From: Escherichia coli
Lineage (GTDB): Bacteria > Pseudomonadota > Gammaproteobacteria > Enterobacterales > Enterobacteriaceae
Reading direction: 5' to 3' (one strand)
NCBI RefSeq assembly: GCF_003018255.1
Contig: NZ_CP027440.1
DNA length: 64,000 bases
Part shown: positions 3,472 through 4,057 of the stretch, piece after piece
Position numbering within the stretch: position 1 is the first letter of the stretch
Layout of the letters: every line of letters begins with the position of its first letter
The notes under the pieces: model-generated
What the model was told of the DNA's origin: nothing
What the model saw: the letters and a program-made list of their open reading frames with translations, nothing else
Databases searched by the model: none
Position numbers and translations under genes: made by a program

Positions 3472-4057
3472 AATTTTTCCTGTCTCCAGGCCCCAAAGTA
3501 AATAATAAAAAATTCCTAAAAGTTAAGGAAAAAATATGCCCAATAAATTGGCGGTGAATGCTGATTAAAATCAAGAAAAACTGCCATTAAGACATTGAAG
3601 TTGCTGTTTTTATACGTAGATAACAAAACGCATATTTAGCGGTTGGCAAATATCACATAATAATGTGTGTAAATTGATGGTGGATTGATGCAAATTTGTT
3701 AATTGTAAGGTGTTAGCTGCGGTTGTGTGCTCAAAAAATAATCTTCCATGAGCATGAGTTGACGATACATAATATATTTTTCGTTAAGATATTTTTTATA
3801 TCTTATTAAAAAATAAAGTAATTTTTATCGGTTGTATTTTGTTATCAGAAACGACTTGGTTTTTCTTTTATGACTATTCCCATCGCAGAAAACGATGCGT
3901 TGTCTTTAATCGATGCGCGGAAATATTTATCTTGAACTAGCGGAAATAAATAGGGCAGCTATTCATATTATTCTTCATGTTGGGGCTATTGAGGTTATGT
4001 TAATTGTAGCTTTGCTATGTTAGTAGTAGATTTTTGATAAATGTTTAATGGTCACAA

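Follow-up and report, generated by a model that had tools for sequence, protein, structure and literature searches.

Genomic context and composition of the dcuC-pagP spacer

The DNA analyzed here is a 64-kb stretch (hereafter the window) from a strain of Escherichia coli phylogroup B2, and near one end of it lie the divergently transcribed genes dcuC and pagP in the order dpiBA-dcuC<>pagP-cspE-crcB-ybeM-tatE-lipA. The spacer region is 99.8% identical to that of Nissle 1917, and RefSeq makes identical dcuC and pagP calls in Nissle 1917 and K-12 MG1655 with nothing annotated between the two genes. When the 586-bp spacer is used as a query it finds matches in 5,381 of 5,426 complete E. coli genomes, one copy in each. 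The coordinates of the features discussed are given in Table 1. We note that in Nissle 1917 the locus tag CIW80_RS20900 is missing between those of dcuC (RS20895) and pagP (RS20905), which suggests that a feature was formerly called in the spacer and has since been withdrawn.

Table 1. Features of the dcuC-pagP region, by position in the window.
Feature	Position	Strand	Remarks
dcuC ORF	2086-3471	minus	ORF table and RefSeq
dcuC-pagP divergent spacer (whole)	3472-4057	n/a	586 bp, 31% GC
Predicted dcuC 5' UTR	3472-3526	minus	~55 nt; predicted start ~3526
Predicted dcuC -10 hexamer, CATATT	3533-3538	minus	read from the sequence
FNR box, CTGATTAAAATCAA	3561-3574	n/a	one mismatch from TTGAT-N4-ATCAA
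Conserved block, TTGATGCAAATTTGTTAATTG	3687-3707	n/a	invariant TGTTAAT core; alignment columns 256-278
Escherichia-only AT-rich centre	3720-3925	n/a	holds the A/T tract at 3792-3831
Sigma-70-like element, TTAAGA-17-TAAAAA	3784-3812	plus	putative 'pagP' promoter, proposed from genomic SELEX (PMC3946193)
Conserved island in the variable centre	3860-3897	n/a	38 bp, nearly constant
PhoP box, TATTGAGGTTATGTTAA	3987-4003	plus	direct repeat, three mismatches to consensus
pagP -10 hexamer, TATGTT	4016-4021	plus	12 nt downstream of the PhoP box
Predicted pagP 5' UTR	4028-4057	plus	~30 nt; predicted start ~4027-4028
pagP ORF	4058-4618	plus	ORF table and RefSeq

The first-pass annotation of this DNA, made from the sequence alone, had singled out the spacer as unusually long, very AT-rich and dominated by A/T tracts. 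Its coordinates and length for the spacer are exact, and the composition bears out the rest. The GC content is 31.1%, compared with 51.1% for the window, and this is the lowest-GC 586-bp stretch in the 64 kb, as expected of an H-NS-silenced promoter region; equally AT-rich windows of this size make up 0.17% of the total, and every one of them overlaps the spacer. Runs of four or more A/T nucleotides occur at 30.7 per kb in the spacer and at 9.6 per kb in the window, and the A/T string quoted as an example lies at 3792-3831. The description 'unusually long' is fair, not extreme; among the intergenic gaps in the first 50 kb this is the longest, followed by gaps of 453, 380 and 332 bp. Only two other stretches of the window, 8316-8948 and 58472-59060, have a 586-bp GC content below 36%. 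The first of these surrounds the ybeF pseudogene and lipB, and the spacer there is also tagged 'HNS' in the genomic SELEX table discussed below.

Throughout the Enterobacteriaceae this locus has a long AT-rich spacer. The orthologous spacer measures 558-588 bp in Escherichia and is shorter in Citrobacter (411-465 bp), Salmonella arizonae (391 bp), and Klebsiella and Raoultella (284-293 bp); the GC content of this set is 29-38%. Our alignment comprised the spacers of E. coli B2 and K-12, two further species of Escherichia, Salmonella arizonae and four species of Citrobacter, and we scanned motif positions in 44 orthologous enterobacterial spacers ranging from Escherichia to Klebsiella. The 44-spacer comparison divides the region into three parts: a dcuC promoter at approximately 3526-3574, a pagP promoter at approximately 3987-4028, and an AT-rich centre that is found only in Escherichia.

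The dcuC promoter

Conservation across genera is highest in the dcuC-proximal zone of the spacer, including the block that would form the dcuC 5' UTR. An FNR box with no more than two mismatches is present in 43 of the 44 spacers, 92-107 bp upstream of the dcuC ATG. The predicted -10 hexamer falls inside a block, AATATGCC-AATAAA, that is nearly invariant in the nine species aligned. The centre of the FNR box is at 3567.5, and subtracting 41.5 places the predicted start at 3526, with the -10 hexamer at the matching distance; if CATATT is indeed the -10 element, the box would be centred at -41.5, the geometry of a class II FNR-dependent promoter.

Published work in K-12 agrees with this assignment and with the initial expectation that a dcuC promoter lies in the spacer. 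In the study of Myers et al., dcuC is classed as under direct activation by FNR, and its ChIP peak is at 655,298 (U00096.2). By our own conversion, which uses an offset of 777 between U00096.2 and NC_000913.3, the K-12 FNR box is centred at 655,287.5, approximately 10 bp from that peak. Myers et al. remark of the dcuC peak 'TSS not in peak region'. The likeness to other class II FNR promoters extends to the near-consensus TTGAT-N4-ATCAA box, a predicted -10 element at the spacing expected for a box at -41.5, anaerobic induction, and the FNR occupancy reported for dcuC by ChIP in K-12. It differs in that the dcuC box starts with C rather than T in nearly all genera, and in that its -41.5 spacing is a predicted one.

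The pagP promoter

The second promoter expected in the spacer was that of pagP, with a PhoP-box scan proposed as a check. Scanning with the direct-repeat consensus (T/G)GTTTA-N5-(T/G)GTTTA locates a box; this box and the adjoining -10 element are both conserved and placed as in the literature. Matches with three mismatches are common by themselves, with 188 in the window; the box published for crcA, as pagP is also called, has three mismatches as well. In most genera a repeat of the form TGTTAAG-N4-yATTnA precedes the pagP ATG by 52-54 bp, and the TATGTT hexamer aligns with TATTAT, the S1-mapped -10 element of Salmonella pagP. The box stands where a -35 element would otherwise be, with about 12 nt between it and the -10, and its centre is approximately 32 bp from the predicted start, which is the arrangement of a PhoP-dependent promoter. 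Harari et al. give the distance from the PhoP site to the start as 32 bp in E. coli crcA and 44 bp in Salmonella, and it is from the former distance and the position of the -10 hexamer that we place the pagP start. No stable structure is predicted in the pagP 5' UTR (z = -0.1).

The K-12 pagP (crcA) region has the same locus, flanking genes and AT content, a PhoP box with three mismatches, and the same 12-nt gap to the -10, although the first PhoP half-site is TATTAA in K-12 and TATTGA here, and the -10 is TATGCT in K-12 and TATGTT here. Salmonella enterica pagP, which belongs to PhoP architecture IV (Zwir et al. 2012, PMC3335776), shares the orthologous gene pair, the aligned -10 element and tandem PhoP half-sites of equal helical phase. 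In Salmonella, however, the activating box is 23 nt upstream of the -10 and is centred 43-44 bp from the start, whereas the E. coli box is one helical turn closer, at 12 nt and 32 bp respectively. The Salmonella spacer is also approximately 195 bp shorter and is without the Escherichia centre.

A simple sigma-70 scan finds no promoter-like site inside the spacer, so the placement of both core promoters rests on alignment and geometry. This is as expected for activator-dependent promoters.

H-NS silencing and DNA shape

The proposal that the spacer is H-NS-bound regulatory DNA is borne out by several studies in K-12. Deletion of hns raises expression of a pagP-lacZ fusion 18-fold (PMC4147861, PMC6106083), hns was recovered in a transposon screen for pagP derepression, and plasmid-borne hns brings repression back. 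SlyA and RcsB-GadE offset the silencing (PMC4147861, PMC6106083), with SlyA being required for pagP induction in biofilm, and RcsB with GadE providing a second counter-silencing route. Genomic SELEX places sites for both H-NS and the RpoD holoenzyme in the dcuC/pagP spacer (PMC3946193). All of these experiments were done in K-12, whose spacer (31.5% GC) is 91.8% identical to the B2 spacer overall and approximately 85% identical in the 206-bp centre; because the B2 centre differs by 15%, the strength of silencing there may differ.

Support for curvature and for specific H-NS motifs, both of which had been put forward along with H-NS binding, is mixed. By mean curvature as predicted with a wedge model, the spacer ranks among the highest 0.3% of windows of 586 bp. 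The AA/TT periodicity at the helical phase (10-11 bp) is absent from the spacer, which is no different from shuffled sequences in this respect, so that the proposal of curved DNA is backed in part only. The published H-NS 10-mer motif TCGATAAATT is not enriched there, with two matches at two mismatches. The SlyA 12-mer consensus TTAGCAAGCTAA has no match in the spacer at up to three mismatches; the K-12 pagP paper reports three looser SlyA-site matches (PMC4147861). In view of this mixed outcome of the curvature, periodicity, motif and SlyA-consensus tests, plain AT-richness is the best explanation of H-NS binding here.

The published K-12 Cappable-seq list contains no plus-strand start between 653,077 and 656,393 (U00096.2), an interval that includes the spacer at 655,192-655,779, and pagP was thus silent in the growth condition of that study. 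The strongest plus-strand start of the neighbourhood (score 431) is at 656,590, corresponding to window position ~4868. By our own conversion this is approximately 75 nt inside the cspE coding sequence, not upstream of it, and it could be either an internal start or the result of an undetected coordinate offset.

IS5 is known to relieve silencing at other H-NS-silenced loci. Repeated IS5 insertion into the dcuC-pagP spacer has been observed during kanamycin selection, and by analogy with those loci it is likely that these insertions relieve the silencing of pagP. A different insertion is seen in E. coli MINF_8D (our locus L084, NZ_LR890606.1), in which IS1, at 2748-3650 of that locus, has replaced dpiBA and dcuC along with all of the spacer except the 150 bp next to pagP, which contain the PhoP promoter.

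The approximately 410 bp between the two promoters contain a single block that is conserved across genera, at ~3687-3707. An ArcA site has been predicted upstream of dcuC/crcA (PMC3798270), and this block could be that site. Additional SELEX peaks have been reported in K-12 coordinates for the RpoN holoenzyme and NtrC just upstream of pagP, for RpoS within dcuC, and for RpoH within pagP, the coordinates given being 655,760, 654,932 and 655,854. No -24/-12 element is evident in the spacer sequence. AT-rich DNA often scores in SELEX.

A hypervariable centre restricted to Escherichia

Alignment shows that the segment at 3720-3925 is absent from the Citrobacter and Salmonella spacers. It is likely to be the body of the H-NS silencing region, with H-NS presumably acting on pagP through it. 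Within E. coli it is also hypervariable. Between B2 and K-12, the outer spacer and the flanking genes are approximately 97% identical, and 3720-3920 is 81-87% identical. Ten E. coli spacers fall into at least five discrete classes of centre that are 9-19% apart, differing at 19-39 of ~206 sites, whereas their flanks differ by 0.2-3%; in the other 380 bp of the spacer there are between one and 11 differences among the non-B2 strains. The contrast is clear for K-12 and strain 2014C-3599, which differ at 34 of 208 sites in the centre and by 0.2-1.6% across 7 kb of flanking sequence, so that the centre has diverged by approximately four times their synonymous divergence, the latter being a rough estimate.

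When classes are assigned at 95% identity or greater, they contain 3,277 (K-12 type), 1,028 (B2 type), 455, 304 and 142 genomes; these five account for 97% of 5,376 genomes, and intermediates are few. Most of the changes are transitions, scattered along the segment; some sites are multi-allelic, and the pattern of sharing is mosaic. The exception is an island of 38 bp (3860-3897) that is nearly constant: the 25-bp bin starting at 3872 has one variable column, compared with six to 13 in the adjoining bins. The island holds an RcsB-box-like sequence, TATGACTATTCCCA, at 3869-3882 and a weak hairpin at 3881-3897. The RcsB-box match has three mismatches and within the spacer is not above chance.

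There is a parallel with the fast-evolving intergenic regions bound by H-NS that were described by Higashi et al. 2016 (PMC4720273), in that this is also an H-NS-bound head-to-head spacer with raised diversity in E. coli. That study covered intergenic regions of 300 bp or less, with a median diversity of 0.013-0.019 when H-NS-bound, which is about ten-fold below the 0.09-0.19 of the 206-bp patch described here; the rest of the dcuC-pagP spacer is at 0.003-0.03. The diversity of the centre may be due to local hypermutation, to old alleles maintained under selection, or to neutral decay together with recombination.

The last of these would fit an origin in which the central ~200 bp are a relic of foreign or mobile AT-rich DNA, acquired by an Escherichia ancestor and bound by H-NS as xenogeneic DNA, with its diversity reflecting neutral decay and recombination. 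Such an origin agrees with the silencing interpretation with regard to H-NS and denies the centre any selected role. We regard it as less likely than not. In its favour, Citrobacter, Salmonella and Klebsiella all lack the segment, the spacer has been the target of IS1 and IS5 events, and the variants are dispersed and largely transitions. The same spacer has, moreover, acquired foreign pieces in other genera, including remnants of efflux-pump genes. However, neutral decay fails to explain how the centre can differ by 16% when the flanks differ by ~1%, and it fails to explain the conserved island. A mobile-element relic was rejected: the centre is single-copy in E. coli (a median of one place per genome), and it contains neither repeats nor ORF remnants.

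The acquired pieces in other genera were seen in Kosakonia, Enterobacter and Silvania, where the spacers are 900-1015 bp long, have a GC content of 44-47%, and contain ORF fragments resembling remnants of RND or Cus-type efflux pump genes. These fragments indicate that the dcuC-pagP spacer took up foreign DNA in those genera; the gene remnants are unrelated to the Escherichia segment.

Search for a gene within the spacer

The first-pass annotation found no ORF of 60 codons or more in the spacer and left room for a small ORF or an sRNA. The former is correct, the largest ORF being 39 codons, and for the latter the outcome is negative throughout, whether judged by Rfam, by the hairpin, by the K-12 plus-strand Cappable-seq starts or by ORF conservation. 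There is no evidence for an extra gene in the spacer.

An Rfam scan of 3000-5200 at E≤10 gave nothing credible in the spacer. The only real match in the scanned interval is a cspA-type element on cspE; this match to the Rfam cspA thermoregulator, at 4602-5050 (136 bits, E = 3e-36), spans the cspE leader and coding region. The features of an intergenic sRNA gene, namely a promoter, a 3' end, and conserved sequence or structure, are not found together in the spacer, and no conserved terminator was found among the spacers compared.

A specific candidate does exist in the literature. The sRNA Ssr31 was predicted between pagP and dcuC of Shigella flexneri 301 (295 nt), in the pagP orientation, and was positive by RT-PCR (PMC4782007). 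The spacer also contains the sigma-70-like element at 3784-3812 and a terminator-like hairpin with a T-run at 3881-3907, as identified by a terminator scan. We nonetheless think it very unlikely that the spacer encodes an independent sRNA on the pagP strand. Within the spacer not a single Rfam family scores at E=1 or better. The hairpin (3881-3897) is weak, with a predicted energy of -6.4 kcal/mol (z = -1.0), and a stem mismatch abolishes it in K-12 (0 kcal/mol). The putative promoter is located inside the most variable 50 bp of the spacer, and the K-12 Cappable-seq list has no plus-strand start at this element or anywhere over the spacer. The segment is absent in Citrobacter and Salmonella, and is poorly conserved in other Escherichia species. 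The RT-PCR evidence is itself weak, as RT-PCR alone does not distinguish an sRNA from read-through transcription or DNA carry-over.

The possibility of a small protein is more remote still. Nine ORFs of 20-39 codons are present in the spacer, among them a 21-codon ORF at 3870-3935, whose frame is kept in K-12, and a 36-codon ORF at 3913-4023. In each of the nine, nevertheless, either the start, the frame or the length is not preserved in K-12 or in the other Escherichia species. In the 21-codon ORF the ATG is TTG in K-12, and many stops interrupt the frame in both E. whittamii and Escherichia sp. E1V33; the 36-codon ORF is cut off by a stop at its sixth codon in K-12; and a 23-codon ORF on the minus strand loses both start and frame in K-12. 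No Shine-Dalgarno sequence is visible ahead of any of the spacer ORFs, and among the RefSeq E. coli matches listed none has a feature annotated under the spacer.

Organization of the region

The best explanation, and one that we hold with considerable confidence, is that the spacer combines two back-to-back promoters in one regulatory region, divides functionally into three zones and contains no gene. The ~105 bp proximal to dcuC would constitute a class II FNR-activated promoter, in which FNR bound at 3561-3574 (at about -41.5) recruits RNA polymerase to CATATT under anaerobiosis, with transcription probably starting near 3526. The ~70 bp proximal to pagP would be a PhoP-activated promoter; here phospho-PhoP is predicted to bind the repeat at 3987-4003 in lieu of a -35 element, with 12 nt separating it from TATGTT downstream, and to drive pagP transcription from ~4027 with a leader of ~30 nt. 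The ~410 bp between these promoters, and above all the centre, would form an AT-rich stretch of high predicted curvature that is coated by H-NS, and this coat would keep pagP silent in ordinary growth until silencing is lifted by SlyA, RcsB-GadE, PhoP, or the insertion of an IS element. What was computed here is the composition of the spacer and, for the FNR and PhoP sites, how well they are conserved and how they are spaced; H-NS repression and binding, FNR occupancy and the position of the PhoP site come from papers on K-12 and Salmonella; and we infer both start sites in the B2 strain and the action of H-NS through the centre.

This system is already known from the work in K-12 and Salmonella. 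The pagP gene is a textbook example of control by H-NS, PhoP and SlyA, and dcuC is a known FNR target, so that the present findings add nothing new in these respects; their confirmation does strike the dcuC-pagP spacer off the list of possible locations of hidden genes. The allele structure of the centre is the one point that is perhaps worth following up. PagP palmitoylates lipid A, which lowers TLR4 signalling and increases resistance to antimicrobial peptides, and it helps biofilm survival in vivo (PMC4147861). One speculative idea, to which we give only a small chance, is that the centre is a rapidly diversifying silencer module, the alleles of which (at least five, shuffled among lineages by recombination) give each lineage its own threshold for the silencing of pagP by H-NS, with the constant island at 3860-3897 as the invariant site to which a counter-silencer, for instance RcsB-GadE, binds. 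Were this so, the alleles would tune lipid A palmitoylation lineage by lineage, and with it detection by innate immunity and resistance to antimicrobial peptides. If the centre alleles do alter pagP silencing, they would provide a simple, testable case of regulatory evolution at an H-NS-bound locus of the core genome, and would call for caution in transferring what is known of pagP regulation in K-12 to B2 strains such as Nissle 1917 and ST131.

As a separate observation, the PagP protein diverges much faster than its neighbour DcuC. Amino acid identity to the E. whittamii homologues is 88% for PagP and 98% for DcuC, and to those of Salmonella arizonae it is 74% and 93%, respectively.
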